Source: an uncultured Bacilli bacterium
Lineage (GTDB): Bacteria > Bacillota_I > Bacilli_A > RF39 > UBA660
DNA: 32,000 bases
Assembly (NCBI GenBank): GCA_944358535.1
Contig: CALVRH010000009.1
Span: 7,125 to 39,124 of the forward strand
Reading direction: 5' to 3'
Position 1 is the stretch's first letter. Every line of letters begins with the position of its first letter. A program made the position numbers and the translations under genes. The notes under the pieces are model-generated. The model did not search any database and was not told where the DNA came from. It saw nothing but the letters and a program-made list of their open reading frames with translations. Shown here piece by piece: positions 10,408 through 32,000 of this stretch.

Positions 10408-10484
<77 letters not shown>

Positions 10485-10527
10485 TTTTTGATATTAAAGT
10501 TTTTGTTTGAAAAACTTTTTAATTGAA

Positions 10528-10565
10528 AATAATGCTGGTAATATTATTACCAGCATTATTTTTTT
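10528..10565. terminator. Strong bidirectional terminator (ends the tRNA transcript and the minus-strand cassette)
   Basis: Perfect 15-bp stem AATAATGCTGGTAAT (10528-10542) / ATTACCAGCATTATT (10546-10560) with a 3-nt loop and T5 (10561-10565). An A-run lies on the other side. A weaker AT-only hairpin sits at ~10495-10518. Confidence 0.75.
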
Positions 10566-11193: not shown

Positions 11194-11276
11194 AATTATC
11201 TCCATTTAAAATTTTATTACATATTTAGCAACAAGGTTCATCAGTTTTATATGTATCATTTATAATACCATCTTTG

Positions 11277-13682: not shown

Positions 13683-13876
13683 TTTATATACTCCTTTCTA
13701 TTACCGGTTATTTTTTCAATGACAGTATAAAAGTGAAATTTTCTTTTTCTCTCTTTTATATGGTAAAGTTGATTATCTATTTTATATTTTTATTGAGTTT
13801 TGAGCCCTCTTTAAATTGTAAGTTTTTATTTTTAGAATTTTCAATCTGTTTATCAATTATTTTATACCTTATTTTT

Positions 13877-15967: not shown

Positions 15968-16118
15968 TTTTTTCACCTCATATCAATTTTTATTACGTTT
16001 CAATTATAACAAAAAGATGGGAAAAATACTACTAACATATTTTTATAGTAAATTTAATAATTTTTCAGATAAATTTCACAAAAGTTGGTTACTATATTTA
16101 TATAAGAAGGAGATGTAT

Positions 16119-17720
16119 ATGGAAAAAATAAAGAAACATAAGAAAAAGATATTAGTGATTTTTTTAATTTTAATAGTGCTAACATGTGCTGGATTTGGTG
16201 GTTATAAATATTATGAACATTATCAAGATACAAGGTTTGAAAATTCTAATTGGTTAAATAGGCATATTTCACTTACACAAAATGATGAAGGCATTTATGA
16301 AGTTGAAACTGATGAGGATATAGATATCTTTAATTTGATTTACCAAGATGTTATCGAAAGTAAAATTAATGATTTAAAAAATGATGATTATTCAATTGAA
16401 AATCCTTTAATTATTTACAACCCATATGGTACTGGAAGTCTTTCATATTATGTTTATTTGGGTGAGAGTTATGATAATTTAAGTTATAAAGTAAGTACTG
16501 ATGGCTATGCGGATTATAGTCACGATTTGGGAGATAATACTGAATATCAACTAGTTGGATTTATTCCAGGTGAGACAAATACTTTTAGTATAACGGATGG
16601 AAATACAACTTTTGAGACCGAAATTACTACTCCAAAAATTGAAGAAGATATTGATATTCAAGTTAAAAAAACAGATGGTGATAGTGATAAAGAATTAACT
16701 GATGGATTATATACAGTACTTGGACATGATAAGAATTATGAGGCAAATATTTATTTATATGATAATGAGGGGATTTTAAGAAATGAACTTGTTTTAAATG
16801 ATTACCGTGCTGATAGGATTATATTTGATGATGGATATATGTATTATCCTTATGAAAGTCGCGAGATAATGAAGGTTGATTCTTTAGGTAAGATTGTAGA
16901 TATGTATGACCTTGGGAAATATAGAATGCATCATGATATGATTTTGGATGGAAATAAATTAGTTATTTTAGTTGATGAAGTTGGAGCTGATACTAAAGAA
17001 GATGTAATTATTACTTTGGATTTAGAGTCTGGTGAGGTTAAAGAAGTAGTAGATATGAAAGATTTACTTCCTGAGCTTTATGAAAAAGCTATTTTACCAG
17101 AAGATAATGAGACATTAGATTGGATTCATTTGAACTGTTTGACGCTTAAAGGTGATGATTTGATTTTAAGCGCTAGAGAAATTTCAACAATTGTTTATGT
17201 ATCTGATTATGAAACTAACCCTATTATTAAGTATTTGATTACTGATGAAAGTATGCTCGAAGGAACATCTTATGGTGATTTACTTTATGATAAAATTGGT
17301 GATTTTGTAGATACTGCTGGTCAGCATGCGGTTACTTATATTCCTGGAGAATCTGATAGTGAATATTATTTGATTATGTTTAATAATAACTATGGTTCAA
17401 TCGTGACAAGACCAGACTTTGAATGGACTAACTATCCAGGTGTTGGAACTTATGAAGAAGGAGATACATCATATTTCTATATGTATAAAATTAATGAGGA
17501 TGATGGAACTTATGAACTTGAAGATAGTTTAGAGATTCCTTATTCGAGTATTGTCAGTAGCGTTCAATTTGTGGATGATAATTTAGTTGTTGGTAGTGGG
17601 ATGGATAACTCATTTGGAGAATATGATGAGGATGGCAATTTAATTAGTCAGTTTAGATACGAAGCTAAAAAATATGCTTATAGAGTGTTTAAATATTCTT
17701 TTGATAATTGGTTTAATTAG
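16119..17720 (+). CDS. Arylsulfotransferase (ASST)-like beta-propeller protein with an N-terminal signal anchor
   Basis: The start is set at ATG 16119 (MEKIKKHKKK; AAGGAG SD). It has a hydrophobic N-terminal helix. The segment ETLDWIHLNCLTLKGDDLILSAREISTIVYVS resembles the ASST family signature. Assignment is by eye only. Confidence 0.55.
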   Translation: MEKIKKHKKKILVIFLILIVLTCAGFGGYKYYEHYQDTRFENSNWLNRHISLTQNDEGIYEVETDEDIDIFNLIYQDVIESKINDLKNDDYSIENPLIIYNPYGTGSLSYYVYLGESYDNLSYKVSTDGYADYSHDLGDNTEYQLVGFIPGETNTFSITDGNTTFETEITTPKIEEDIDIQVKKTDGDSDKELTDGLYTVLGHDKNYEANIYLYDNEGILRNELVLNDYRADRIIFDDGYMYYPYESREIMKVDSLGKIVDMYDLGKYRMHHDMILDGNKLVILVDEVGADTKEDVIITLDLESGEVKEVVDMKDLLPELYEKAILPEDNETLDWIHLNCLTLKGDDLILSAREISTIVYVSDYETNPIIKYLITDESMLEGTSYGDLLYDKIGDFVDTAGQHAVTYIPGESDSEYYLIMFNNNYGSIVTRPDFEWTNYPGVGTYEEGDTSYFYMYKINEDDGTYELEDSLEIPYSSIVSSVQFVDDNLVVGSGMDNSFGEYDEDGNLISQFRYEAKKYAYRVFKYSFDNWFN

Positions 17721-17747
17721 AAAAGACTTACGATTGATTTCGTAAGT

Positions 17748-19775
17748 CTATTTTGTATAATCACATTTACTACATTTTATTTTATCTTTTTTTTCAACTA
17801 ACATTTCACCACATTCTGGGCATTTTTCGCCAGTTGGTTTATCCCAATAAGCATTTTTACATTTTGGATAGTTATTACATCCGTAGAATATTTTACCTCT
17901 TCTTGTTTTCTTTTCTATTATTTTTCCATCACAATTTGGACAATCACATACAATTTTCTCTTCTTTTGGTTCTTGTTTTATATACTTACATTCTGGGAAA
18001 TTACTACAAGCAACAAACTGTCCATATTTGCCCTTTCTGATTACTAAAGGATGGCCACATTCTGGACACATCTCGCCAGTTTGTTCAGCTTCTTTTTTAG
18101 GGAGTTTATCAAAGGCTTCTTTAACAGCTGGTTCGAATTCTTTATAGAAGTCTTCTAATACTTGATACCAAATTTCTTTACCTTCGGCTATTTTATCTAA
18201 ATCTGTTTCCATATTTGCCGTATATTTGACATTTATTATATGATTAAAACATTCTTGGAGTTTATCATTTACTTCAAAGCCAATATCTGTTGGAACAAAT
18301 TTGCGTTCAATTAAATTAACATATCCTCTATTTTTAATGTTATCGATTATAGTGGCATAGGTACTAGGTCTACCAATACCTAATTCATCCATCTCTTTAA
18401 TAAGTTTAGCTTCAGTATATCTTGCTGGTGGTTCAGTGAAGTGTTGCTCTTTGGTGATGTCGTTTGAAACAATTATTTTTGAATTATAAGAGTCAAACGG
18501 AGGTAATATAGCGTCTTTGGTTTCTTCATAATCACTATATACTTTTAAATAACCATCAAAGATAATAACACTACCAGTAGCTTTGAAGTTATAATCATTA
18601 TTGTTTAAAATAACGGTTGTTCCTTCTACTTTAGCTGGCGCCATAACGCTGGCTAAAGCACGATAATAAATTAATCTATATAGTTTAAATTCGTCATCGG
18701 TTAAATAAGGTTTTACACTTTCTGGTGTTCTTTCAATGCTAGTTGGTCTAATGGCTTCATGAGCGTCTTGGACATTTTCAGTTTTTTTACTTATTTTGAC
18801 AGGACCGGTATATTCTTTACCATATTTATTTTCAATAAATTTATAAGCTTCGGAAACGAATTCGTTGGATAATCTAATGGAATCGGTACGCATATAGGTA
18901 ATTAATCCAACTGTTTCATCAGCTAAATCAATACCCTCATATAGTTTTTGAGCAACACTCATTGTTTTTCTAGATGAAAATCTAAGCTTATTTGAAGATG
19001 CTTGTTGCATAGTACTGGTGGTAAATGGAGGTTTTGATTGTTTGTTTTTTTCTTTTTTAGTAACTTCCTCAATCTCAAAGGCTTTGGTTAATTTATTTAA
19101 AATATTATTGGCTTCGGTTTCGTTTTTTATTTCAATTTTTTTATGGTTATAAGCGAAGAGGTTAGCTTTAAAGTCTTTAAAGTCAGCAGTTATAGTCCAG
19201 TATTCTTCTGGGTTAAATGCTTTAATTTCTCTTTCTTTATCAACAATTAGTTTTAGGGCAACGCTTTGAACTCTACCGGCAGATGAACCATCGGTTTTAG
19301 ATTGAATTAGTTTGCTTAATCTAAATCCAATAATTCTATCTAAGATTCTTCTTGTCTCTTGGCTATTGACTAGGTTTTGATCAATTTTTCCTTCGTGTTT
19401 CATAGCTTCTAGAATAGCATTTTTAGTAATTTCATTGAATGTTACTCTACTATAAGGTTTATCTTTTAAATTTAAACAATCGTAAAGATGCCAAGCAATG
19501 GCTTCCCCTTCTCTATCGTGATCGGTTGCGAGATATACTTTGTCAGCTTTTTTGGCTTCTTTTTTTAGTTCGTCAATAACACTTTTTTTGCCTTTAATTG
19601 TTTTATAATCTGGTTTAAAATGATTTTCTATATCAACACCGAGGCCATATTTACCTTTAGTTGATAAGTCTCTAATATGGCCTTTACTAGAGGATACAAT
19701 GTAATTATTTCCTAAATATTTACTTATTGATTTTACTTTTGTAGGTGACTCTACTATAACTAAATCTTTACCCAT
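17748..19775 (-). CDS. topA: DNA topoisomerase I (type IA) with C-terminal zinc ribbons
   Basis: 675 aa. Toprim start LVIVESPTKVKSISKYLG, DHDREGEAIAWH, active-site region ITYMRTDS, and three or four CxxC...CxxC fingers at the C-terminus. Confidence 0.95.
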   Translation of the reverse strand: MGKDLVIVESPTKVKSISKYLGNNYIVSSSKGHIRDLSTKGKYGLGVDIENHFKPDYKTIKGKKSVIDELKKEAKKADKVYLATDHDREGEAIAWHLYDCLNLKDKPYSRVTFNEITKNAILEAMKHEGKIDQNLVNSQETRRILDRIIGFRLSKLIQSKTDGSSAGRVQSVALKLIVDKEREIKAFNPEEYWTITADFKDFKANLFAYNHKKIEIKNETEANNILNKLTKAFEIEEVTKKEKNKQSKPPFTTSTMQQASSNKLRFSSRKTMSVAQKLYEGIDLADETVGLITYMRTDSIRLSNEFVSEAYKFIENKYGKEYTGPVKISKKTENVQDAHEAIRPTSIERTPESVKPYLTDDEFKLYRLIYYRALASVMAPAKVEGTTVILNNNDYNFKATGSVIIFDGYLKVYSDYEETKDAILPPFDSYNSKIIVSNDITKEQHFTEPPARYTEAKLIKEMDELGIGRPSTYATIIDNIKNRGYVNLIERKFVPTDIGFEVNDKLQECFNHIINVKYTANMETDLDKIAEGKEIWYQVLEDFYKEFEPAVKEAFDKLPKKEAEQTGEMCPECGHPLVIRKGKYGQFVACSNFPECKYIKQEPKEEKIVCDCPNCDGKIIEKKTRRGKIFYGCNNYPKCKNAYWDKPTGEKCPECGEMLVEKKDKIKCSKCDYTK

Positions 19776-19868
19776 AATTCACTTCCTTTTTTTGACTAAT
19801 ATAACTTATACACTAGTTTATGACGATTGTCAAATAATTTTTCACTTTAATTATTATAATTTTCATTT

Positions 19869-22800
19869 TTACTTTTTATGTATGAAAAGTTGCATTTTAT
19901 TTCTTAATGATAATAAGTTATCTATAATTTTTGTTTGTTCCATTTCTTTGATGATAGATTTTTTTCGAAGATAATAATTTACTTCATAGTTTTCATCATA
20001 GTCTTGATTTAACCATCGAAGATTTGGAATAAAAGAAAACATGTTTACCTTAAAGCATAACTTTACTAAGTCAAACATTAATGGGTCTTTGTATATAGCT
20101 GATTGAATATCTTCAAACATGTTATAACTAATATTAAAGTTAAAATATTTTATCATTTGAATAGCTGTTTTTATATCTGTTTCTTTTTGGGTTGCTTGTA
20201 AATAGTTTTGAATACACGGGATGACTATGGCTTTTTCCCAAAGGGATGGCAAAACTATTTTTATCATCCTATATATATTTAATTCATCATCAGTGTTTTC
20301 ATTTAAAATATTATAGTATTCTTCTATATATATTTTTAGATTTCCTATATAGTAAGTTTTTTTATTTTTACTTACATAATAAAGATAAAGATATGTTTGT
20401 AATAAAGGATGACAGAAGTAATACCATTTACCAGCTTTAACGATTATTTTACTATCTAAAGGATTAATTTTATGTTTAGCTAATTTTTCTTCTGTAAAAA
20501 CAATCTCATTATTTTTGATTAATTTATAGGCAAAATAAGATAGTTTATTTATTTCTTTTAAATTACCTTCAAATATAAAGCTTAAAAAGCCAAAGAAGAA
20601 CATTTGATTATTTATATAAGTATTTGTTTCGAAAAATTGATTTAATAAGTTCATGACAATGGTATTATGTTTTAAATCCTCAAATAATGGGCCTTGAAGG
20701 TTATTTATTTTATCTATTATTTCTTTATTAAAGTGATGTTTATGCATATAATCTTGGATATTTATAATATAATGTGATTTACCTAATAGTCTTTCGATTT
20801 TTGTATCTATTAATTTTTTTGTTTCATTTTGATTTGATTTTGAAGGGGTAATTTTAGGTGATGCATAATTTATTTCTGGATAACTAATTTCATTATTTTT
20901 TGTTTCGTTGTTGTAAATTTCTTCTAGACTTTTAGTTAGTTTAGAAGGCATTTTGATGTTTATGTTTTTATATAATCTTGGGACCCATTCATAAATTAGA
21001 TTTTCAAGTTCTAATTCATCCATATCGTAATAATTTATGTCCGAATATATACAATCTTCGATGGCTTTTTTTATGTCACAGCGATTAGTTTTCATATATT
21101 GTTTAAATACTTTTGGATATAGTTCATTTATGTCAGATAATTTATCTATTTGATAAAAGGTTTCTGATTCATATACAAGGTTATCTAAAACATGGTTTAT
21201 AAATTCTGAAAAATCGTGTTTATTTTTGAAGGCATTTAACAAATTAAAGATGTCATCTAAATCAAATTTATATAGTAAGCCAAACATAATATCGTCAAAG
21301 TTAGATAAAAAATCTTCTGTTTCAGAGATTAAGTATTTTTTTATTTTAGAATTTTTTTCAAAGTTGGTGGTCTTGACTAAAGTGGTTAGTATACTTATAT
21401 ATTTGGTATTTTTTTCACAATTTATTAAATGATTTAAAATATGCTCTTCTAGGTTCTTTTTCATTTTTTCATCTTCATAATTTACATATTTCCATAAGGT
21501 AATGGCTTTTTGAGGTGTTAGATCATTAGTTAAATAGTTAAAGTAAAAATTAATATTTTCTTTAAGAAAATGATTTAAGAAATCCTTATAGGTAGGATTT
21601 TTTAAACTTATAGTAGGCTCTTTGGTTTTAGTTATATTTGTGAAGGTGTTTTCGGTTATAGTTATATAATCTGAAAATTTATCGCCGGTATTTTTAAAGA
21701 TATTATTAAAATCTATTTTTAGTTTTTCAATTGAGATTTGTCCTTCATTTAAAAATATTAACAAGAGTAATACTTTGATTTCTACTGGCTGCTTTTTTAG
21801 ATCTTTTTTAAAGTGTTCATAAGGGTGTTTTAGGTAGTCCATGAATTCAATATAAAGATCAAATGGCTTTAGGTGTTTGTATTTATTATAATCTTTAAAG
21901 AAATCATGTATTAATCTTGGAGTATAGTTTGGAGAGTTTAAAATATTACTATAAAACATTAAAAGTATTTTTGTGTGTTCATATGATAAAGGATAATTTA
22001 CTATATGGTTATATAAAATATTAAATTTGGTTATTAATGATAAGTCATTTGCTTTTAATAAAAACTGGTGTTTAGTGAATTCATTACTTATTTTGTTATT
22101 TATTTCTAAGCCTTCTTGAAATATATATTCGCGGCTAGTTATTATTAAATATTTATTTTCTTGCTCTATTAATGATATAAAATTATATAATTTCTTTTGC
22201 ATTTCAGATGATATACTTAAATTATATTCTGTGTCACCCCAAAAATCGTCAAAAAAGTATATTTGATTTTTATTTTTTTGATATACATCATATAATTCAT
22301 CTACTGAAGAGACTTTGATAAATTCAGAATTTTTAATCTTTTTTATTAAATTAATTATTAGCATACGGCCTAGTGTTGTTTTTCCAATACCTGGCTCACC
22401 TGTTATGATGATTACTTTTTTATTTAATAGATTTTCTAAGGCTTGTTTATAGCTATCGGTAATGGCATAAATTTCTTTTTCTTTATTTATTTCGTTTAGT
22501 TCAATTTGTGTTTGCAGATGAATACTTTTATTTTTTATGTTTTCTATTGTATTAAAGAGGATGTTACTACTTGGAATATATAACTGATAGTATTTTAATT
22601 CTAATTCATGATATTCTTTTTTTGATAGTAAGCGATTTAACATTTCTTTATCTATAATATCATTCATTTTTAAATGGCCGGAAAACATTTCAATTAATGT
22701 TTCTTTTTGTTCTTTTTTTAGATTTTGAGAAGTAATTAAAATATATCTATCAAACTTTTGGACTCTTGTGACTTCTTTTTTTAAACTATTTTTTAATGTA

Positions 22801-22988
22801 TTAAAGTTTTCTTTTTGATTTTTAACTTGTCCAATTATTGTTCCATCCGCATTATAAAAGTCAATACCTTTATCTTTACCTAGACCATTATTATAAAATT
22901 GCTCTTTTTCTTTAATTGATATAAATTCGGTTGCAAATTCTTGAAATTCCTCGGCTGATAATGAATCATAATAAGAATATTTTGTCAT
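19869..22988 (-). CDS. Mrr-like PD-(D/E)xK nuclease - STAND P-loop NTPase - long helical C-terminal region (Avs-like antiphage architecture)
   Basis: 1039 aa. N-terminal FQEFATEFI...GKDKGIDFYNADGTIIGQVKNQ has the Mrr_cat-type D...QxK motif. Walker A IIITGEPGIGKTT (nt ~22377-22403) and Walker B IYFFDDFWG. About 750 aa of alpha-helical sequence follow with no recognised repeats. GAAGGTGA SD. Confidence 0.78.
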   Translation of the reverse strand: MTKYSYYDSLSAEEFQEFATEFISIKEKEQFYNNGLGKDKGIDFYNADGTIIGQVKNQKENFNTLKNSLKKEVTRVQKFDRYILITSQNLKKEQKETLIEMFSGHLKMNDIIDKEMLNRLLSKKEYHELELKYYQLYIPSSNILFNTIENIKNKSIHLQTQIELNEINKEKEIYAITDSYKQALENLLNKKVIIITGEPGIGKTTLGRMLIINLIKKIKNSEFIKVSSVDELYDVYQKNKNQIYFFDDFWGDTEYNLSISSEMQKKLYNFISLIEQENKYLIITSREYIFQEGLEINNKISNEFTKHQFLLKANDLSLITKFNILYNHIVNYPLSYEHTKILLMFYSNILNSPNYTPRLIHDFFKDYNKYKHLKPFDLYIEFMDYLKHPYEHFKKDLKKQPVEIKVLLLLIFLNEGQISIEKLKIDFNNIFKNTGDKFSDYITITENTFTNITKTKEPTISLKNPTYKDFLNHFLKENINFYFNYLTNDLTPQKAITLWKYVNYEDEKMKKNLEEHILNHLINCEKNTKYISILTTLVKTTNFEKNSKIKKYLISETEDFLSNFDDIMFGLLYKFDLDDIFNLLNAFKNKHDFSEFINHVLDNLVYESETFYQIDKLSDINELYPKVFKQYMKTNRCDIKKAIEDCIYSDINYYDMDELELENLIYEWVPRLYKNINIKMPSKLTKSLEEIYNNETKNNEISYPEINYASPKITPSKSNQNETKKLIDTKIERLLGKSHYIINIQDYMHKHHFNKEIIDKINNLQGPLFEDLKHNTIVMNLLNQFFETNTYINNQMFFFGFLSFIFEGNLKEINKLSYFAYKLIKNNEIVFTEEKLAKHKINPLDSKIIVKAGKWYYFCHPLLQTYLYLYYVSKNKKTYYIGNLKIYIEEYYNILNENTDDELNIYRMIKIVLPSLWEKAIVIPCIQNYLQATQKETDIKTAIQMIKYFNFNISYNMFEDIQSAIYKDPLMFDLVKLCFKVNMFSFIPNLRWLNQDYDENYEVNYYLRKKSIIKEMEQTKIIDNLLSLRNKMQLFIHKK

Positions 22989-23151
22989 ATCTTCACCTTC
23001 TTTGATTCATTGTATCAAATAATTTATATAAAAACAAATGTTTGAACAAAAATAAGCCATATTTCTATGACTTTATTTGAGAATGTATAATTTAATGTGT
23101 TTTTAATTTTACACACTAATCTTGACAAGAACTCTACCTACTGTTTTATAC

Positions 23152-24066
23152 TTAACCTAAAGTATAAGGATTTGACTGACTACCATCTCCTCCCGTGATT
23201 TGGACTTCAGAAGAAAGAGTTATGGCAGGCCTGACCGCATAGCCCGTAAAGCTCGCGATGTAGTTGAGCACGTCGCCATTGCTACTCACGCCGAACACAT
23301 AGTCAGAGGTGCCAGAACGAAGCGACAAGATCCACCAACTAATACTATTAAACATCCACGTTGTATTTTTACATGTACTAGAATTATTATTGTTCAAGCT
23401 TAATGTTTTACAGTTTGAATTTGAATTCGTTCTTAAATATTCGCTTACTGTTGGTAATGCTATTTTTCCATTCCATGTTGTACTATTTTCATTATTGACT
23501 TGACTCGCTAAATCATTATTACTAAGAGTTACTGGACCTATACTATAATCATATGCAACTATTTGACCTTGTGCTTCACTACTTAAACTATTTAAATATG
23601 TTCCATTTAAATATGTATTTAATGTAGCTGGTCTGGCCCAATTATTTTTATTTGATGTATCCCATGCTAAAGTATAGCTTGTATTTATATTTGCTGTTTT
23701 CATTATCTTTATAGTTCCATCACAACCTACAGAAATAATTCTCCAGCCGGCTTTCTCTCCATTAAAAGTTACATAATTATTGGGGTTTGCTCCAGTAAAG
23801 AAATATCTACACTCATACGGATCTTTTTCTAGTCCATTATCTTCTATTATTTGTTCCCCTGGTGGCTTAGCTGTACATACTCCATATAACTCATCTATTG
23901 CTCCTTGAACATTTGTACTCTGCAAGCCACTTACACTATTATCATATGTTGTTTGATTAGAAGGAAAATATGTTGCTGCTATTACACTTATACTAATTGC
24001 TGTTATTACTCCTAATACAAAACCAGGTAAATATCCAAAAACTACTTTTTTTATTCTCTCTTTCAT
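23152..24066 (-). CDS. Membrane-anchored surface protein with a lectin-like (DUF6273/DUF1566-like by eye) C-terminal domain
   Basis: The start is set at ATG 24066 (MKERIKK; AAGGAGG SD). It has an N-terminal TM helix. Motifs seen: NVQGAIDELY, WRIISV..DGTIKIM, GKIALPTVSEYL, WWILSLRS and AVRPAITL. Confidence 0.6.
   Translation of the reverse strand: MKERIKKVVFGYLPGFVLGVITAISISVIAATYFPSNQTTYDNSVSGLQSTNVQGAIDELYGVCTAKPPGEQIIEDNGLEKDPYECRYFFTGANPNNYVTFNGEKAGWRIISVGCDGTIKIMKTANINTSYTLAWDTSNKNNWARPATLNTYLNGTYLNSLSSEAQGQIVAYDYSIGPVTLSNNDLASQVNNENSTTWNGKIALPTVSEYLRTNSNSNCKTLSLNNNNSSTCKNTTWMFNSISWWILSLRSGTSDYVFGVSSNGDVLNYIASFTGYAVRPAITLSSEVQITGGDGSQSNPYTLG
23224..23340 (-). other. Adenine-depleted, GC-rich 117-nt segment at the 3' end of the surface-protein gene (candidate DGR variable region)
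   Basis: Hand count on the coding strand: 66/117 G+C (~56%), only 19 A (16%), and 0 of 39 codons end in A. The rest of the gene and window are strongly A/T-rich with frequent A-ending codons. Confidence 0.35.
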
Positions 24067-24183: not shown

Positions 24184-24432
24184 ATGAACGGATTACAGAA
24201 TTATAACAATGATTTTAAAAAAATTATTTGCAAAAATATAAAGAAATTTAGAAAAGAAAAAGAGATTCGATTAATGGATTTAGCAGAAATGTTAGAGGTT
24301 TCTCCAGAATATTTAAAGAGAATTGAGTCACCAAATGATGATAAAAAAACTTGTTCATTAACTTTGCTTTATAAATTATCATTGATTTTTAATAAAAAGT
24401 TGGATGATTTTTTAGTGGACGATCAAAAATGA
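24184..24432 (+). CDS. XRE-family HTH transcriptional regulator
   Basis: 82 aa. IKKFRKEKEIRLMDLAEMLEVSPEYLKRIES...LLYKLSLIFNKKLDDFL fits the HTH_3/Cro-C1 pattern. GGTGA SD. Confidence 0.8.
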   Translation: MNGLQNYNNDFKKIICKNIKKFRKEKEIRLMDLAEMLEVSPEYLKRIESPNDDKKTCSLTLLYKLSLIFNKKLDDFLVDDQK

Positions 24433-24480
24433 TTGTCTTTTTATTTACATTGGTGTTACAATAGGTTTTGTGAGGTATTT

Positions 24481-25398
24481 ATGACGGAAAAGGAATTTTT
24501 AATTTGTGATATGGTTAGCGAGGGGTATACTTTAAACGAGATAGCCAAAGCTTTATGGCTTAGTTCTAGGCAAGTACATCAAAAGATTTTAAAGTTAAAC
24601 AGTGATGGCTATTTTATATCCCCTATTTATTTTGATAACGGGAATATTAAATATGTTTTTGATAAGTTTGATACTGAGCATACAATAAATATTTCTTTAG
24701 AGGATAGTTCAAGATTTAAAGCTTTAGTTATTTCTGATATTCATATAGGAAATGAACTTGAAAATTTAGGCTATTTATACAAAGTTTATGATTATGCGAG
24801 GAATCATGATATTCATGTTATTTTAAATTGCGGGGATTTGATTGATGGAAGCTTTACGAAAGGCAAGCAAATAGTTAATGATATAGATGAACAAATTGAA
24901 AGGGTTATTGATGATTATCCATTTGATAAAAGTATTTTAAATTTTATATGTTTTGGTAATCATGATTATAGTGCTTTTGAAAATGGGAGGGATATATCTA
25001 TAGCGATTTCAAATAGAAGGCCAGATTTAGTAAGTGGTGGTTATGGTTTTTCTTTAATAAATATTGAAAAGGATCAATTTGTAATATATCATCCTTTATA
25101 TGAAAAAATATCTATACCTAATAAGTTAATTTTGGAAGGACATCATCATAAAGCTTTATTTAAAATAGCAAGGAATAATTTTTTTGTAAATGTACCTCCA
25201 CTTAGTGATTTATGTTTTGGCCTTCAAGAAAATCCAGGAATGATTGAAATGGAATTATTTTTGAATAACGGTTTTATAAATAATGGTCATTTTAAACAAA
25301 TTGGGGTAAAAAAAAGATTTGAGGTTTATGGGGAAAATGATTTAGAATTTTTCTTAAAGCATGACAAAATAGATGAAAAAAAGATAATTTTTAAATAA
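24481..25398 (+). CDS. N-terminal HTH + calcineurin-like metallophosphoesterase (paralog 1)
   Basis: The start is set at ATG 24481 (GTGAGG SD). The track's TTG 24433 directly abuts the XRE stop. HTH-like EKEFLICDMVSEGYTLNEIAKALWLSSRQVHQKI. Metallophosphoesterase motifs SDIHIGN, CGDLIDG, FGNHDY, EGHHHK. Confidence 0.7.
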   Translation: MTEKEFLICDMVSEGYTLNEIAKALWLSSRQVHQKILKLNSDGYFISPIYFDNGNIKYVFDKFDTEHTINISLEDSSRFKALVISDIHIGNELENLGYLYKVYDYARNHDIHVILNCGDLIDGSFTKGKQIVNDIDEQIERVIDDYPFDKSILNFICFGNHDYSAFENGRDISIAISNRRPDLVSGGYGFSLINIEKDQFVIYHPLYEKISIPNKLILEGHHHKALFKIARNNFFVNVPPLSDLCFGLQENPGMIEMELFLNNGFINNGHFKQIGVKKRFEVYGENDLEFFLKHDKIDEKKIIFK

Positions 25399-25408
25399 GG
25401 AGTTTTAT

Positions 25409-26422
25409 ATGTTTGATGAAGATGAAATTATTAGCAAATTAAATGAAGAAAAAAATTTAAATGAGGTTGCACAAGAGTTAAATATATCTGTATTAGAGGC
25501 CCATAAAAAAATTATGGCTTTAAAAAATGGTGGGATGGTATTTAAAAAAATTATTTATGATGATGGAAATATAAATTATTATATTAAAAGATTTCCAGAT
25601 TTTTATAAAACTAATACTGCCGAACTTAGGGTTAAAAATCATTTTGATTTATCTGCCATGTTGATAAGTGATACTCATTTCGGCAATAGTTTAGCTAATA
25701 TGGATTATTTAGATAAGATTTATAATTACTGTAAGGACTGTGATATACATATCATTATTAATGGTGGAGATTTGATTGATGGCTCATTTAATAGGGAATC
25801 TCAGGATATTTGTGATCCTTTAAAACAATTAGAGTATGTGATTAAAAATCATCCGTTTGACGCAAATATTTTAAATTTAATATGTTTAGGTAATCACGAT
25901 TTTAGTTTATATAAATCTGGCATTGATATTAAAAAGGCTATAGAAATTTCACGAAGTGATTTGATTCCTTTAGGATATGGACTTGGTATTATAAATGTAG
26001 AAAATGATCAATTTTTTGTAAGGCATCAGATACCGGAATATAATTTTGAACAGATTAATGGAAAGTTTATATTGGAAGGACATAAGCACAAAATGGCTTT
26101 TACTGATGAGGGAGATGGATTTTTAATAAATATTCCGACGCTAAGTGATTTAACTTTAGGAAAACACGAATTACCTGGGGCTGTTAGAATGGATTTATTT
26201 TTTGATGAAGATGGTAATATTAATTCTGGAAGGTTTGAACAATTTATATATAATGGTAAAATGTGTACGGTAAATGAAACTTTGCTTAATTTTAATTTGA
26301 ATCATGAGATGATTTATGAGAAAGATGTAAGGCCAAAATTAAAGATTAAAAAGTATGAATATAATGGGCTTAGTCAAACTGAGAAGTTTTACAAAAGGCT
26401 TGAAAAGAAAAAAGAATTCTAA
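25409..26422 (+). CDS. N-terminal HTH + calcineurin-like metallophosphoesterase (paralog 2)
   Basis: 337 aa, AAGGAG SD, 10-nt gap after paralog 1. It is colinear with paralog 1: SDTHFGN, GGDLIDG, LGNHDF, EGHKHK, IPTLSDL versus VPPLSDL. Confidence 0.7.
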   Translation: MFDEDEIISKLNEEKNLNEVAQELNISVLEAHKKIMALKNGGMVFKKIIYDDGNINYYIKRFPDFYKTNTAELRVKNHFDLSAMLISDTHFGNSLANMDYLDKIYNYCKDCDIHIIINGGDLIDGSFNRESQDICDPLKQLEYVIKNHPFDANILNLICLGNHDFSLYKSGIDIKKAIEISRSDLIPLGYGLGIINVENDQFFVRHQIPEYNFEQINGKFILEGHKHKMAFTDEGDGFLINIPTLSDLTLGKHELPGAVRMDLFFDEDGNINSGRFEQFIYNGKMCTVNETLLNFNLNHEMIYEKDVRPKLKIKKYEYNGLSQTEKFYKRLEKKKEF

Positions 26423-26434
26423 CCAGAATTCTTT
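26411..26434. terminator. Hairpin between the convergent HTH-phosphoesterase and activase operons
   Basis: 10-bp stem AAAGAATTCT (26411-26420) / AGAATTCTTT (26425-26434) with loop AACC. It overlaps both stop codons. The T-tract is short. Confidence 0.45.
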
Positions 26435-27369
26435 TAATATTTACCGCATTTACTACCCCATGAGTCGACTAGTTCATTATTACGATATATTTTAAGTAGC
26501 TCGCAGCTATTTGGACAGCGATGACATTCAAAAGCTTTGGTTTGAAATTTTATGTTTTTCATTTCTAACGAGTAAGTATGGCCTGTTTTATGTTTTTTAG
26601 CTAAAACAGCAATGCCAATAGCTCCCATTAGATGACTATTTTCATCGACGATGATGTCTTCATTTAATATTTCTTTAAAGTATTTTACAACACCTTTATT
26701 TTTAGATACCCCTCCTTGAAAGATGACTGGACCAATTATTTTTTTCCCTTTACCAACGTTATTTAAATAATTTAAGACAACACTTTTACAAAGTCCAGCA
26801 ATGATATCTTCTTTGGGGTAACCAACCTGCGCTTTATGAACTAGATCAGATTCGGCAAAGACGGTACATCTAGCGGCTATTTTGACGGGGTTTTTAGATT
26901 TTAAGGCATAGTCTCCAAATTCTTCAACTTTTATACCTAATCTTTTGGCTTGACTTGATAAAAAAGAGCCAGTTCCTGCTGCACATAAGGTATTCATAGC
27001 ATAGTTAGTGATGATACCGTTTTTAATTAGAATTATTTTAGAGTCTTGGCCGCCTATTTCTAATATGGTTCTAACATCTGGATAGAATGTTAATGTACCA
27101 ATGGCGTGAGCGGTTATCTCGTTTTTGACAACCGAAGCTTTAAGCATTAGACCAATTAATTTTCTAGCGCTTCCTGTGGTTCCTATGCCTTTTATTTGAC
27201 AGTTTTTAGGCAAGTGTTTTTTTAATATATCTAAAAGTTTTCTTACAGCATTAGTAGGATTACCTTCGGTCCATATATAAGCTTTGGTAATAATTTTATT
27301 TTCATCATCAATAATAACTCCTTTGGTTGAAATGGAGCCAATATCAACACCTAAGTAACAATCTTTCAT
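26434..27369 (-). CDS. BcrAD_BadFG-family ATPase (2-hydroxyacyl-CoA dehydratase activase-like)
   Basis: 311 aa. ASKHA start YLGVDIGSISTKGVII. Cluster-ligand contexts LCAAGTGSFL and ARCTVFAESD. C-terminal Cys motif CHRCPNSCE...GSKCGKY. ATGA overlap with the upstream gene. Confidence 0.82.
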   Translation of the reverse strand: MKDCYLGVDIGSISTKGVIIDDENKIITKAYIWTEGNPTNAVRKLLDILKKHLPKNCQIKGIGTTGSARKLIGLMLKASVVKNEITAHAIGTLTFYPDVRTILEIGGQDSKIILIKNGIITNYAMNTLCAAGTGSFLSSQAKRLGIKVEEFGDYALKSKNPVKIAARCTVFAESDLVHKAQVGYPKEDIIAGLCKSVVLNYLNNVGKGKKIIGPVIFQGGVSKNKGVVKYFKEILNEDIIVDENSHLMGAIGIAVLAKKHKTGHTYSLEMKNIKFQTKAFECHRCPNSCELLKIYRNNELVDSWGSKCGKY

Positions 27370-28430
27370 TTTTCTTTCCTCATTTCTAACATATCATAAA
27401 AGGCTTCTAGTCTAGTTTCAACACCTGTTTGTGAAGTGGCGGAATCAAAACTAAAGAATAATACGGGTTTTTGATACTGATTAGCTATTTTACTAATTAT
27501 GGGCATAGCCCCAATTTCAGGGGTACAAAATGACGACTTTATATGAATGATACCATCATAATTTTTTTGGCAAAGGTATTTACATCTAGCGATATTATCG
27601 CTCGCATCAGCGCCCATATTGTATTTGAAATAGTTTTTAGCATACTTTTTAATTTTTTTATATTCTTTAGCTTTTTCTATTAGTAAATAGTGGACATTAG
27701 TAAAACGTTTTATCTCTATATGATGTTTAGCTAAAGATTTTTCTAAATAATAATTGGAAAATGGTTCCATGATGGTATATAATTCTCCTATTATTCCGAT
27801 TTTTAGTCTATTGTCGGGTTTATGAGTTTTTAATTTATGAAATTTTTTTAAGTATTTTTGATAAGTTCTATAAAGATGTCTAAAGTTTTTTATATGGCTA
27901 AATTCAACTAACATTTCTTCTTTTAGAGATTCAAATGAACCTTCTATTTGTTCGAAACCAATATTTTCTCTAATATAATTATCAATGATGTCCATATATT
28001 TAACCATTTTTAGGGTCACGAATGTATAGTAAATGGTTTTTAATTTGGAATATTTAGGGTTTATTTGTTTTAAAAGATTATTTATTCTTTTAAAATTGGT
28101 TTCCCCTTTTGTAACTAAATTAATTATTTTACATTTATAGCCTAAATCTTTTAAGATTTGTTCTTGCAATTCGGCATAATATCCATAACGACAACCGCCA
28201 CCCATTTGAATTAAAATGTCGGCCCCTTGTTCTAAGCTTTCAATCATGGTTCCTAAGGTATATTTAAAAGGTGTACAGACAAATTCTGGAGAGTATTTAG
28301 TACCAATTTCGATAGTTTTTGAGGTTATTTTTGGGGCTTTAATTATTTGATCATTTGGAAAGACATGAGAGAGCAAATATGAGGCTGGAATATGATAATC
28401 ACCCATTTGGGGAAAGGCTATTTTAGTCAT
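27366..28430 (-). CDS. Acyl-CoA dehydratase activase-related protein (HgdB/D-component-like)
   Basis: 354 aa. KIAFPQMGDYHIPASYLL...SPEFVCTPFKYTLGTMIESLEQGADILIQMGGGCRYGYY resembles the C-terminal part of the large fused 'CoA-substrate-specific enzyme activase' proteins. 8-nt overlap with the upstream gene. Confidence 0.65.
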   Translation of the reverse strand: MTKIAFPQMGDYHIPASYLLSHVFPNDQIIKAPKITSKTIEIGTKYSPEFVCTPFKYTLGTMIESLEQGADILIQMGGGCRYGYYAELQEQILKDLGYKCKIINLVTKGETNFKRINNLLKQINPKYSKLKTIYYTFVTLKMVKYMDIIDNYIRENIGFEQIEGSFESLKEEMLVEFSHIKNFRHLYRTYQKYLKKFHKLKTHKPDNRLKIGIIGELYTIMEPFSNYYLEKSLAKHHIEIKRFTNVHYLLIEKAKEYKKIKKYAKNYFKYNMGADASDNIARCKYLCQKNYDGIIHIKSSFCTPEIGAMPIISKIANQYQKPVLFFSFDSATSQTGVETRLEAFYDMLEMRKEK

Positions 28431-29325
28431 TTAATTTTCCTCCTAACATGTCTAGAAAGCTTTCAAGTCTTGTTTCTAGTCCAGTAAATGATGAATTATC
28501 ATCAATAACAAGGTTTAAGTAGGGTTTTTTTATTTTTCTCATGGCAAGTTCGTTGGCCAAGCTATCTGGGCCACAAGGAAATGATGATATGAAAATTATA
28601 CCGTTTATTTTCTTTCGAGTATATGCGATAGCACCTAAATTATCTTTGCTGTATTTAAAGTATAGATCTTTAGAGATTTCTTTACTTAAGGGATTAGTGA
28701 TTTTAGAATCAAATTTGTCTGAATAAATTATTTCAATGTTGTTTTTAAGTAAATATTTAATGATATCTTTACCAATCAATTCATCGTAAACGTTATAAGG
28801 ATGACCAACTATAAGAATTTTGGTTTTTTTTACTTTTAATTTATTTTGATTAATTTGATGATTTTTTTTAACTTGTTTTTTATGTTTAATTATGGCGTAT
28901 TTGTAAGCTCTTTTTATTTGAGGAGATGATTTATTTAAAGCTTTACCAATTTTATATAGTCCTTTTTTGAGGGTTTGTCCTTTTTCTAAGTCAATATTAT
29001 AATGTAGTATATTTATATTAAAAATATTTTTAACGATATCGTAGGCAGCCCAAAAATTAGTGCATGTTTGATTACTATTTTTAAAGTTACTTATTCTTGG
29101 AACTAAGATATAATCGCATTTATCTTTTAAATAGTCTACGTGTCCTAAATAGTTTTTTAAAGAAAGGCACATTTCACTATTTGATGTTTTTATTCCTCTA
29201 TCCATGATTTCTTTATTGGTTATCGGACTTACAATATAATTGATTTTTAAGGCGGTAAAAAAATCTTCCCAGATATTTCCATAATAGTAATAAAACAGAC
29301 TACGAGGAATGCCGACTGTATTCAT
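28423..29325 (-). CDS. Acyl-CoA dehydratase activase-related protein (DUF2229-like)
   Basis: 300 aa. VGIPRSLFYYYYGNIWEDFFTALKINYIVSPITNKEIMDRGIKTSNSEMCLSLKNYLGHV matches the IGIPRAL..Y..P.W..FF..LG...S..T.K......C.P.K...GH signature of the DUF2229 region. Confidence 0.65.
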   Translation of the reverse strand: MNTVGIPRSLFYYYYGNIWEDFFTALKINYIVSPITNKEIMDRGIKTSNSEMCLSLKNYLGHVDYLKDKCDYILVPRISNFKNSNQTCTNFWAAYDIVKNIFNINILHYNIDLEKGQTLKKGLYKIGKALNKSSPQIKRAYKYAIIKHKKQVKKNHQINQNKLKVKKTKILIVGHPYNVYDELIGKDIIKYLLKNNIEIIYSDKFDSKITNPLSKEISKDLYFKYSKDNLGAIAYTRKKINGIIFISSFPCGPDSLANELAMRKIKKPYLNLVIDDNSSFTGLETRLESFLDMLGGKLND

Positions 29326-29599: not shown

Positions 29600-29850
29600 G
29601 ACATTAGCTTACCTCACGGTAAGCTTTTTCTACTTCATAGCAGCCTTAGGCTTCTCCATAGACCAGTATCGGATAGTCGCTACCCTAATTTATATTTGTT
29701 GTTTGTCAAAATTTATGATTAGATAGATTGTTCTAGATATAACATATATTTTTCTAAACCTTTAAACATTATATTAACTGCCGCATTATAATCACGTTCA
29801 TGATGTGTATGACATACTGGACATTCCCATTTTCTTATGCTTAAATCTTT
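29600..29850 (-). ncRNA. Candidate TnpB-associated omega/right-end RNA scaffold (boundaries approximate)
   Basis: Directly 3' of the tnpB stop on the minus strand lies an unusually GC-rich, hairpin-forming stretch (…GGGTAGCGACTATCCGATACTGGTCTATGGAGAAGCCTAAGGCTGCTATGAAG…AGCTTACCGTGAGGTAAGCT). In known TnpB systems the guide RNA overlaps the tnpB 3' end and the IS right end. Confidence 0.35.
29605..29629 (+). terminator. Rho-independent terminator after the DUF1540-like ORF (could also be the IS right-end hairpin)
   Basis: AGCTTACC (29605-29612) / GGTAAGCT (29617-29624) with loop TCAC, followed by TTTT. Confidence 0.55.
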
Positions 29851-30867
29851 TACCTCTCTATTTTGATAATTACAAATGTTACAGATTTGACTACTTGGGT
29901 AAAATCTGTCTATTTGTATTAATTTTTTGTTATTCCAATTAGCTTTGTACTTAAGCACTCTGATTATTTCTGATATTGGATTTTCATTTAGTCCTTTTGC
30001 CACATAGTGATTTTTCTGCATATTTCTTACATCTAAATCTTCAGTTACTATAATGTCATTTTCGTTTATTAATTTATTGGTTATATCATGTATCATATGT
30101 TTTCTTGCATTTCTTATTTTTTGATATAACCTTTGTATTTTAAGTTTCATTTTATATCTGTTTTTACTTCCAGACTTACATCTAGATATTCCTCTTTGTA
30201 AACCTACCATTCTTTTATTGTTTAGTTTAATGGTATTTTCTATTTTCTCATTAAATGATGTTACTATTAAATCTTTTATTCCTAAATCTATACCAATTAT
30301 ACTTGTAGGTACAAAAGATGGTCTTATTAGTTCTTCTTCTATTAAAACACTTACATAATATTTACCGGCATCTTTTTTAATTACTGCACTTTTAATCTCA
30401 CCAGGCACTACTTCTTTATTTCTATATCCTCTTATTTTTACTTCTTTTAATTTTGGTAAAGTGATTGTTTTATTTTTTAAATCTAGTTTTATACTATTAT
30501 AATTATTTCCTTTATAACTACTTTTAATATTATTAGTTTTATAACTTTCATGTACTCCTTTTGCTTTAAATTTAGGATAACCGTTTCCATTAAAAAATCT
30601 TTTATAAGCATCTTCTAAATTAAATAGACTATTTCGAAGTGCACAGCTATCTACTTCTTTCAAAAACGGATACTCTTTAGAAAGTGATGGTATTAATTTC
30701 ATTTGTTCATAAGCTGATTTACTTTTTCCAGTTTTTTTATATTCTTTTATTTTATCATCCAAAAAATGATTATATATAAATCTAGAGCAACCAATTGTTT
30801 TATTAATTAACTCTTCTTGCTCTTTAGTTGGATACATTCTAAACACATAGCCTTTAAGTACTTGCAT
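29719..30867 (-). CDS. tnpB: TnpB (IS200/IS605-family OrfB, RuvC-like RNA-guided nuclease)
   Basis: LKGYVFRMYPTKEQEELINKTIGCSRFIYNHFL N-terminus. RuvC-I IGIDLGIKD, RuvC-II IIVTEDLD, zinc ribbon CNICNY...CPVCHTHH, RuvC-III RDYNAAVNI. The start is probably ATG 30867 (MQVLKGY) rather than 30885. Confidence 0.9.
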   Translation of the reverse strand: MQVLKGYVFRMYPTKEQEELINKTIGCSRFIYNHFLDDKIKEYKKTGKSKSAYEQMKLIPSLSKEYPFLKEVDSCALRNSLFNLEDAYKRFFNGNGYPKFKAKGVHESYKTNNIKSSYKGNNYNSIKLDLKNKTITLPKLKEVKIRGYRNKEVVPGEIKSAVIKKDAGKYYVSVLIEEELIRPSFVPTSIIGIDLGIKDLIVTSFNEKIENTIKLNNKRMVGLQRGISRCKSGSKNRYKMKLKIQRLYQKIRNARKHMIHDITNKLINENDIIVTEDLDVRNMQKNHYVAKGLNENPISEIIRVLKYKANWNNKKLIQIDRFYPSSQICNICNYQNREVKDLSIRKWECPVCHTHHERDYNAAVNIMFKGLEKYMLYLEQSI

Positions 30868-31110
30868 ACCATCACCTTCTATCATTGCTCTTCACTATAT
30901 CACGAATAGTTATATTTGTAAATAACTTTTTGCAAACTTTTACCTTTTACAAAGCAAATTCCTAGTATATAAAAAAATTGCGATGGTGCATAAACTTATA
31001 CATCGCTTTTTTGTTATGTGTTAAATAAAAGTATTTTGGGTAAAATTTACTAAAAATGTATATAGATTTTCATTTATTTGGTATAATTAAATGTGTTAGG
31101 AGGCGGTTTT

Positions 31111-32000
31111 GTGCATATTAAGTTACTTTCCAACGCTGAGTTTTTAGAGTTTACAAAACAATTTAAACCTGGGTCAATTTACCAAACTCCTTATTATGCG
31201 TTTACAATGCACGAAGAGAATTACAGTTCAATGTTTGTAGGACTTATGGATGGGAATGTTTTAAAAGCGGCTTCTTTAATTTTAATATATAAAGTTAATG
31301 GTTTTAAGTATGCTTTAGCGCCTAGAGGATTTTTAATTGATTATAACGATGAAAAGTTACTAGCGACTTTTACTAAATTGATTAAAAAGTTTTTAGGAAA
31401 GAAAGATATTGTGGCAATCAAAATTAATCCAATGATTATTAGAAAAGTATATAACAGTGCAGGACATGAAATTAGTTTTAATGAGTTATATGATAAAACG
31501 TTTAATGATATGAAGAAACTTGGGTTTTTTCATTTAGGATATAATAATTATTTTGAAGCTTTGAAACCAAGGTTTGAGGCTTACATTAATTTAGATTTAA
31601 ATTATATTAAATTATTTGGAAATATTGATAAGAGTTGCCGCAATAAGATTAGAAAAGCGGTTCGTGATGGTATTAAGGTTTATCATGGCAGTGAGAATGA
31701 TTTAAAGTATTTATATGAGCAAACTAAGGATGATTATCCAAGAGATTTACATTATTTTAAAAATTTATACAAGTTTTTTGGTAAGGATGAGCTTGTAGAT
31801 TTTTACTACAGCAAATTAGATACGACTGATTACCTACAATATACCCAAGATATGTATAACAAATATTCACTTAGGAGTTCTGAACTTAGTAAAAGTTTAA
31901 TTTCACAAAAAGGAAATTTGGATAAGATTATTAATGAAAAGTTAGAGGTTGACAAAAACGTTGTTAAATATCGCAATCAGTTAGCAGAAGCTACAGAGTA
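31111..32000 (+). CDS. FemAB-family peptidoglycan interpeptide-bridge aminoacyltransferase (5' part; runs off the window)
   Basis: Open frame from GTG 31111 (AGGAGG SD at 31099-31104) to the window end with no stop (my translation: VHIKLLSNAEFLEFTKQFKPGSIYQTPYYAFTM...SCRNKIRKAVRDGIKVY...). It has a FemA/FemX/MurM-like look. It is absent from the ORF track because it is GTG-started and open-ended. Confidence 0.7.
   Translation, partial: MHIKLLSNAEFLEFTKQFKPGSIYQTPYYAFTMHEENYSSMFVGLMDGNVLKAASLILIYKVNGFKYALAPRGFLIDYNDEKLLATFTKLIKKFLGKKDIVAIKINPMIIRKVYNSAGHEISFNELYDKTFNDMKKLGFFHLGYNNYFEALKPRFEAYINLDLNYIKLFGNIDKSCRNKIRKAVRDGIKVYHGSENDLKYLYEQTKDDYPRDLHYFKNLYKFFGKDELVDFYYSKLDTTDYLQYTQDMYNKYSLRSSELSKSLISQKGNLDKIINEKLEVDKNVVKYRNQLAEATE

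Follow-up and report, generated by a model that had tools for sequence, protein, structure and literature searches.

In the 32,000 nt stretch of DNA analysed here (the window), from an uncultured bacterium of the class Bacilli (contig CALVRH010000009.1, positions 7,125 to 39,124), an open reading frame (ORF) at 23152..24066 on the minus strand codes for a protein of 304 residues. The protein begins with a hydrophobic segment, probably an anchor or signal peptide, which is followed by an ectodomain and a lectin-like DUF6273 domain. A GC-rich, adenine-depleted patch of 117 nt (23224-23340) lies near the 3' end of this gene. The explanation that we favour, and consider likely, is that the patch represents the variable region (VR) of a remote target of a diversity-generating retroelement (DGR), which a cassette located outside the window has generated, and lately renewed, through adenine-directed mutagenic retrohoming, while recombination inside the target family acts on top of this process.

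The reverse complement of 23224-23340, AGTTGGTGGATCTTGTCGCTTCGTTCTGGCACCTCTGACTATGTGTTCGGCGTGAGTAGCAATGGCGACGTGCTCAACTACATCGCGAGCTTTACGGGCTATGCGGTCAGGCCTGCC, which starts with AGTTGGTGG and ends with GGCCTGCC, is in frame and encodes SWWILSLRSGTSDYVFGVSSNGDVLNYIASFTGYAVRPA (SWWILSL...YAVRPA), residues 243-281 of the 304. Its G+C content is 66/117 (56.4%), with 33 T and only 18 A (15%), and none of its codons ends in A, while 17 end in C, 11 in T (28 with C/T together) and 11 in G. The rest of the gene has 31% G+C and 40% A, with 116 of 265 codons ending in A. No other 117 nt stretch of the window has a higher G+C content (mean 28.1%, standard deviation 5.7%); the second-highest reaches 47% and overlaps a tRNA gene. 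Stretches of this length that are equally poor in A make up 0.011% of those on both strands, and the sole other place where they occur is around 19499-19616 on the plus strand. An initial annotation of this DNA had already noted the values for G+C, T and A-ending codons, as well as the AT-rich surrounding gene with its A-ending codons, and our recount agrees; it had counted 19 A and 29 codons ending in C/T, where we find 18 and 28, which changes nothing.

Variation among homologous proteins is concentrated at this position. In an alignment of 31 homologues that are 65-88% identical (alignment A1), nearly all of the disorder falls between the conserved motifs TTWM and AVRPAITLSS, and within this disordered region an invariant scaffold, W.WTLSP.S..S..VF.V...G.V....A..T..AVRP, is retained. 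Among 120 homologues, 18 columns of the VR exceed 2.5 bits of entropy, compared to five in the remainder of the protein. The residues found in these 18 hypervariable columns are Y, N, S, D, T, G, R, I, F, A, L, H and V, the repertoire of NNY codons, and K, E, Q, M and W occupy only 3.2% of the cells in these columns as against 16.8% in variable columns elsewhere, a depletion for which the nominal p-value is inflated because the sequences are related.

At the DNA level, five independent VRs of the window's type could be compared codon by codon: that of the window (identical in L001), those of the conspecific contigs L139 and L146, and those of two tandem paralogues on L126. The mutagenised part of the VR (23239..23331, minus strand) consists of A-free scaffold codons (TTG TCG CCT/CTT, TCT, TCT, GTG TTC, GTG, GTG, GCG) interleaved with about 18 NNY codons. 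Its 5' limit is approximate, the first variable codon being CGT at 23317-23319, so that the VR as a whole, about 23224-23331, corresponds to residues 246-281 of 304, where the DUF6273 domain comes to its C-terminal end, which is the position and fold class expected of a DGR target. The five VRs match their consensus at 63-66 of 68 scaffold positions (65/68 in the window), and 18/35, 23/35 and 6/35 polymorphic columns lie at codon positions 1, 2 and 3, respectively. This spectrum is the reverse of neutral drift, being the NNY pattern expected of AAY template codons. Where the window protein and the L126 paralogues, which are 72-74% identical, have the same amino acid, they use the same codon at 94-100% of the sites in the VR scaffold and at 82-83% in the rest of the gene. 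The variation thus follows the AAY to NNY pattern on an A-free, invariant scaffold, with exceptions in 11 scaffold columns, mostly C/T, that are taken up below.

Comparisons between near-clonal genomes of the same species point in the same direction. The L146 contig is on the same scaffold as an AckA gene identical to that of the window, and over 16.8 kb it differs from the window at 76 positions, of which 61 are in the target gene, 15 are just 3' of an IS605-type TnpB-like ORF, and none are elsewhere. Over 4.1 kb, the window and L139 show 63 mismatches, 62 of them within the target gene. L139 and L146 share a common backbone and differ at 36 positions, with 22 in the VR and one in about 3.2 kb of flanking sequence, which by its distribution looks like what fresh homing gives. 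As the VR is essentially the sole difference between such near-clonal genomes, strain-specific recognition at the cell surface (phage, host or neighbour binding) probably depends mainly on it.

From the scaffold and the NNY columns, the template repeat (TR) of the window VR can be predicted: it would start with TTGTCGCCT, continue with AAT TCT GAC AAC TCT AAC AAY GTGTTC AAY GTG AAY AGC AAT GAC AAY GTG AAC AAC AAC AAC GCG AAC AAT ACG AAC AAT and end with GCGGTCAGGCCTGCC, with a G+C content of 0.47 compared to 0.52-0.61 for the five VRs. A pattern specific for the TR, with AAY at nine variable codons, was formulated as GTGTTCAAYGTGAAYANYAAYGNYAAYGTGAAYAAYAAYAAYGCGAAYAAY. Searched as GTGTTC AAY GTG AAY ANY AAY GNY AAY GTG AAY AAY AAY AAY GCG AAY AAY, it had exactly one match among metagenome contigs, at 1680-1730 of contig L130, and no match in IMG/VR. 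L130 carries, in this order, a target gene, an intergenic TR (1652-1751), two small ORFs and a gene for a reverse transcriptase (RT). The target protein of 423 residues has its own VR at 1354-1453 and is 42% identical to the window protein over the shared domain, and the RT of 350 residues matches RVT_1 (E 6e-18) and has the DGR hallmark IGNMTSQ together with YMDD. Homologues of this RT led to four further cassettes (L131, L136, L140 and L141, reached through P0124, P0129, P0127 and P0125). The cassette of L130 is complete, with a probable Avd as well, and in the other four, too, RT and Avd accompany a homologous target. In L131, an ORF of 108 codons preceding the RT gene probably encodes Avd, as it matches the NCBIfam Avd model NF033474 with an E-value of 4e-7, although this match falls short of the cut-off of the model.

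In these cassettes, mismatches between TR and VR fall mainly on adenines of the template (20/22 in L130, 19/28 in L131 and 19/23 in L136), and most of those that do not are terminal in the spans compared and lie beyond the homology, the nine in L131 forming a run after the homology stops. The TRs have a G+C content of 0.43-0.46 and the VRs one of 0.52-0.61, the same jump that sets off the patch in the window. All five recovered TRs are collinear with the window VR, and that of L131 is of equal length. In L130, the homology between TR and VR stops after a GC-rich sequence, GTGTCCCCCGCC, which is equivalent to GCGGTCAGGCCTGCC in the window.

This last element (23224..23238, minus strand) forms the 3' end of the VR. 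The initial annotation had described it as 80% G+C, with host composition resuming directly after it, and had likened it to the GC-rich initiation of mutagenic homing (IMH) element at the 3' end of VRs. Both points stand: 12 of the 15 positions of GCGGTCAGGCCTGCC are G or C, the sequence is identical in the five VRs save for two substitutions in one L126 copy, and its position equals that at which the aligned TRs and VRs of L130, L131 and L136 cease to be homologous. We regard the assignment as IMH-like to be sound by position because, in those three cassettes, the homology ends right after the equivalent GC-rich stretch; both the presence and the position of such an end are as expected of a VR.

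The five cassettes belong to organisms other than that of the window. The one in L131 is chromosomal and lies within a few kb of the genes for RNase J and FtsY, which are also found together in the window, and its host is only distantly related (RNase J 57% and FtsY 66% identical to those of the window). Directly after the stop codon of the target gene, a GC-rich hairpin is present at L130:1526-1600, L131:1268-1340 and L136:228-300 (z -2.5 to -3.2), with stems that differ, followed by the conserved sequence AGTTATCCACAT and then by TTATAAGGCAAGT upstream of the TR; the window target has none of these. Homologues of the L130 target (P0277-P0396) constitute a sister subfamily of proteins of about 420 residues, a few having about 730, with 7,899 matches among 8,000 candidates scored. 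Their C-terminal part is hypervariable in the same way and closes with AVSPALYLSSNVKISGG; for the most part, these proteins lack a Pfam annotation. Among the matches listed, 0 of 120 homologues of the 423-residue target have the AVRPAITLSS ending, and a cis-type target with a TR of the kind expected for the window was thus not seen there.

The target protein itself matches the Pfam family DUF6273 (PF19789) at residues 135-285 with 36.8 bits (E 4.5e-9), above the Pfam gathering threshold of 23.5, and the match covers positions 25-171 of the 172 in the profile. It has 2239 homologues at E <= 1e-3, nearly all of which, among those listed, carry DUF6273. An AlphaFold2 model of residues 66-304, computed from an alignment of 102 sequences (alignment A2) that includes the sister subfamily of about 420 residues, reached a predicted local distance difference test score (pLDDT) of 93.8 and a predicted template modelling score (pTM) of 0.91; from the 31 close homologues alone, the pLDDT was 39. 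Residues 179-219 of this model, which correspond to the VR, fold into three beta strands with their loops. Foldseek searches of BFVD returned phage proteins annotated as DUF6273 (best E 2.9e-10, template modelling score (TM) 0.60), with 12-20% identity in the structural alignments. The best solved structure in the PDB was 9qa6, an IgA peptidase of Thomasclavelia ramosa (E 2e-8, TM 0.58 over the query), the N-terminal domain of which was assigned to DUF6273 by its authors (PMC12402451). This domain shares the DUF6273 fold, but it is joined to an M64 peptidase, and diversification of it by a DGR is not known; the match identifies the fold and says nothing about the function of the target protein. 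Weaker matches were to the C-terminal domain of Legionella Lcl (DUF1566, E 0.05) and to classical C-type lectins, and a profile search against PDB sequences gave no match. The lectin-like C-terminal domain proposed in the initial annotation is hence borne out by structure prediction as a DUF6273 fold, with weak resemblance to DUF1566 and C-type lectin domains.

If the patch is the VR of a DGR target, a TR elsewhere in the genome, composed of A-free scaffold codons and about 18 AAY codons, would be transcribed, and a DGR reverse transcriptase acting with Avd would copy the TR RNA into cDNA while misincorporating opposite template adenines. With the GC-rich 3' element GCGGTCAGGCCTGCC as a guide, the cDNA would then replace the VR. 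The outcome would be a scaffold that is A-free and GC-rich, variable codons of the NNY type, a depletion of A, and a G+C content of about 56% in the VR, up from some 47% in the template, and the product would be a ligand-binding surface that varies between strains. The target would be one of several paralogous targets per genome, among which recombination may shuffle backbones and VRs. We infer these steps, the predicted TR and the existence of a cognate cassette in the genome from the comparisons described above.

A TR-like copy was found in the window neither by a repeat search nor by an ungapped scan that tolerated any mismatch at adenines of the candidate template, and no reverse transcriptase was found among the window ORFs, nor in the same region as annotated in L146. 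The statement of the initial annotation that the window has neither TR nor RT is thus correct by repeat search, A-tolerant scan and family searches of the ORFs alike. A cognate cassette, if there is one, must lie at a distance of over 30 kb on one side or over 8 kb on the other. With the TR-Avd-RT cassette outside of the 32 kb window, the target would be a remote (non-adjacent) one; the cognate TR was not found, and the cassette would act in trans. Accordingly, what that annotation had proposed holds as far as the DGR origin of the VR is concerned, where it is supported by the fold, the NNY pattern, the related cassettes and the differences between near-clonal genomes; that the VR is serviced in trans, and is not a recent relic, is the presumptive part.

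Several observations weigh against current mutagenic homing from a single, strictly adenine-specific template. Neither TR nor RT turned up in the approximately 10 kb beyond the AckA end (the window start) of conspecific contigs, or at the other loci examined from the window's clade. IMG/VR, searched with the protein alignment and with four DNA patterns for VR or TR, returned nothing; GenBank phages (blastn, tblastn) gave no match, and neither did plasmids, for which the L131 cassette was the query, so there is no sign in these collections of a phage- or plasmid-borne lineage of the target or of the DGR. None of the five recovered TRs can be the template of the window VR, as they have ends of the AVSPA/ASPA type in place of GCG GTC AGG CCT GCC. 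In the surroundings of the IMH-like element (window 23060-23245), no hairpin or cruciform was found that was better than in shuffled sequences (z -0.65 and -0.32). Hairpins or cruciforms downstream of the VR are common in DGRs, though not universal. Within the target gene, the window also differs from L139 and L146 at 21-30 positions outside the VR, and its allele therefore looks like the result of an allele swap and not of homing in situ. In clusters at 90% identity, different backbones often carry one and the same VR, and such a VR recurs between samples, which indicates that the turnover of VRs is not fast and that recombination moves VRs too. Finally, 11 of the 68 scaffold columns are not constant across the five VRs. 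Third-position C/T differences in variable codons (as in TAT/CTC/ATC and AGT/TAC/CGC) account for six of the 11, and the exceptions also include one ACG/ATG and one TTC/TGC. Such differences would not be expected if there were only one TR and mutagenesis were strictly adenine-specific; they could reflect strain-specific TR variants, a second TR, or RT errors at positions other than adenines.

Many of these points would fit an alternative in which the VR is a relic or orphan, originally made by an ancestral DGR whose working cassette has since been lost, the present differences between alleles being due to recombination or gene conversion among VR alleles and paralogues. The failure to find TR or RT in the window, in the conspecific 10 kb and at the clade loci is in line with this, as are the persistence of identical VRs across samples on different backbones and the differences from L139 and L146, which are spread across the greater part of the gene in the way that an allele swap would leave them. 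Relics do exist in the family: the distant members P0032 (locus L127) and P0093 (locus L122) have drifted scaffold codons, with the same codon in 53% and 25%, respectively, so the family also holds VRs of another template or VRs that are decaying. Phages that keep DUF6273 targets after loss of the DGR have also been reported (10.1101/2024.10.15.618418). Nevertheless, we consider a relic unlikely for the window, while according it serious weight, as its scaffold is preserved at 65 of 68 positions and is still free of A and rich in G+C, in a genome of 28% G+C. L139 and L146, moreover, differ by 22 positions in the VR with a shared backbone and a single difference in the flank of about 3.2 kb, and genomes without a single-nucleotide polymorphism over about 16 kb still bear unrelated VRs.

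The initial annotation had offered, as its alternative, a patch acquired by gene conversion from a homologue of higher G+C, which may be extended to horizontal transfer without involvement of any retroelement. The abrupt local jump in G+C would suit such an origin, and recombination mosaicism does occur in the family. We think this very improbable, however: the GC-rich scaffold recurs in many members, on contigs that all have 24-32% G+C, and a high-GC homologue was seen in 0 contexts among the 240 homologues listed. A transfer would not produce variation at codon positions 1 and 2 with NNY codons, and the homologous TRs (43-46% G+C) yield VRs of 52-61% by A-to-N changes in situ, so that the composition is explained by A-to-N mutagenesis of a template of 43-47% G+C. 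That the patch is an ordinary surface loop with unusual local codon usage, diversified by point mutation and selection alone, is hardly credible either: residues 130-145, 180-190 and 225-242 of the protein are also moderately variable, but these parts keep the host composition and A-ending codons, while the VR alone joins an invariant A-free scaffold (at synonymous sites too) with saturated codon positions 1 and 2 and a near-absence of K, E, Q, M and W, a pattern explained by the TR copies in the relatives.

Neither DGRs, nor DUF6273 targets, nor remote targets are new, and the mechanism that we favour for the window VR is in that sense documented. DGR targets with a VR at the C-terminus of DUF6273, described as C-lectin-like, have been reported (PMC10743442, PMC11792537, bioRxiv 10.1101/2024.10.15.618418), so far mainly in gut phages. 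These phage targets (tentaclins, the Mtd-like small targets of nd4/nd12, and those of the Faecalibacterium prophages Lelie, CP11, Roos and Pioen and of Toutatisvirus) share with the window protein the family PF19789, the fold and the position of the VR, which in them likewise comprises beta strands and loops of the C-lectin-like domain, and non-adjacent second targets are known among them, for example at 17 kb from the TR. In contrast, the window gene is chromosomal and non-phage, its product has a predicted N-terminal anchor or signal peptide instead of a tail-fibre or immunoglobulin (Ig) context, and it belongs to a dispersed, multi-copy cellular family.

Targets distant from their cassette have been found in 45 of 372 DGRs, with distances above 100 kb almost only in non-phage DGRs (Wu et al. 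2018, PMC5758913), and action in trans of the BPP-1 components has been demonstrated experimentally (PMC5758913). The DGRs of Treponema denticola (TvpA and up to seven non-adjacent targets) and Legionella (LdtA) are chromosomal as well, with surface targets of C-lectin type, several of them far from the RT. Those targets are lipoproteins of the FGE-sulfatase/C-type lectin (CLec) or DUF1566 type, whereas the window target is a DUF6273 protein with a hydrophobic N-terminal anchor. With BPP-1, the founding DGR (Mtd/Brt/Avd/TR), the window shares the logic of AAY codons, adenine mutagenesis, a 3' VR and a GC-rich IMH. Counterparts of the I/LGxxxSQ motif of its RT and of Avd are seen in the related cassettes, not in the window, and in contrast to BPP-1 there is no detectable sequence similarity to Mtd, no hairpin beside the IMH-like element, and no cassette adjacent to the target. 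What is distinctive here is the cellular, membrane-anchored context, the dispersed multi-copy family, often with a divergent helix-turn-helix (HTH) gene, and the lack of a detectable hairpin.

The target's subfamily has over 2,000 members, and the proteins that match the sister subfamily number nearly 8,000. Several paralogues occur per genome, with two in tandem on L126 and others at different sites on L127 and L122. The copy on L122 lies beside genes for a penicillin-binding protein, MraY and FtsW, the tandem pair on L126 beside ClpB, and that on L127 beside MurJ and ClpB; on L124, an IS66 transposase gene is located between the HTH gene and the target gene. The differing chromosomal sites, together with the frequent divergent HTH_3 partner, suggest a two-gene module that is mobile or often duplicated. 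As a tentative extension, for which we would claim less confidence than doubt, a single chromosomal, non-phage DGR might act in trans on the many scattered genes of a family of membrane-anchored, lectin-like DUF6273 proteins in an uncultured bacterial lineage with genomes of about 1.5 Mb and 28% G+C, with several paralogues per genome, many of them with an HTH regulator of their own, and with recombination between paralogues shuffling backbones and VRs on top.

If this is true, DGR mutagenesis and paralogue recombination would form a two-layer system of surface variation, and the third-position C/T changes would be a sign either of several templates or of mutagenesis that is not restricted to adenines. 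From a practical point of view, a remote DGR target is recognisable from raw sequence, as an A-depleted, GC-rich NNY patch at the end of a lectin-like domain, and a template predicted from remote targets sufficed to retrieve a real DGR cassette from a metagenome. The analysis also draws attention to hypervariable surface proteins of uncultured low-GC bacteria that make up a very large family and lack annotation.

At the N-terminus of the target protein, the basic sequence MKERIKK is followed by a hydrophobic segment, GYLPGFVLGVITAISISVIAA (23971..24033, minus strand; about residues 12-32, some 21 residues), which was read from the translation and is conserved in alignment A1. It is predicted to be a membrane anchor or Sec signal, which would place the remainder of the protein outside the cell. 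The 3' tail of the gene beyond the VR (23152..23223, minus strand), encoding ITLSSEVQITGGDGSQSNPYTLG and the stop codon, has host composition and is conserved, being identical in the window, L139 and L146, and nearly so in the L126 paralogues. Divergent from the target gene is a small gene for an HTH_3 regulator of the Xre/Cro type (24184..24432, plus strand; Pfam HTH_3, E 4e-6). The pair of HTH and DUF6273 genes recurs at several chromosomal sites (L001, L122-L124 and L139), and a functional link between the two genes may be presumed.

Downstream of the target gene, the window contains a defence-like island (10408-22988) that extends from the gene for tRNA-Arg(tct) (10408-10484). According to family searches, it encodes a TIR-NB-ARC-TPR protein (11277-13682, minus strand), a protein with RyR and TrkA_N domains (13877-15976, minus strand), an arylsulfotransferase (16017-17720, plus strand) and TopA (17748-19775, minus strand). 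An nSTAND3 NTPase of 1039 residues (19869-22988, minus strand) is encoded directly downstream of the target gene, a neighbour that is kept in conspecific contigs only and not at the loci of other family members.

On the other side of the HTH_3 gene, two tandem paralogues (24433-26422, plus strand; 321 and 337 residues) each combine an HTH-like N-terminal part with a calcineurin-like phosphoesterase domain, and show up as direct repeats with a spacing of 934 nt. They are followed by a cluster of three genes (26434-29325, minus strand) that resembles 2-hydroxyacyl-CoA dehydratase and its activator (BcrAD_BadFG, HGD-D and DUF2229, the annotation being that of L146) and is unrelated to the VR. The 15 differences from L146 noted above are held by a stretch of about 100 nt (29640-29730) just 3' of the stop codon of the TnpB-like ORF (29719-30885, minus strand), which could be the guide/omega-RNA end of the IS605-type element, or else an assembly mix of insertion-sequence copies. 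A partial ORF that runs off the end of the window (31086-32000, plus strand), also unrelated to the VR, has by eye the look of a FemAB-type peptidyltransferase.

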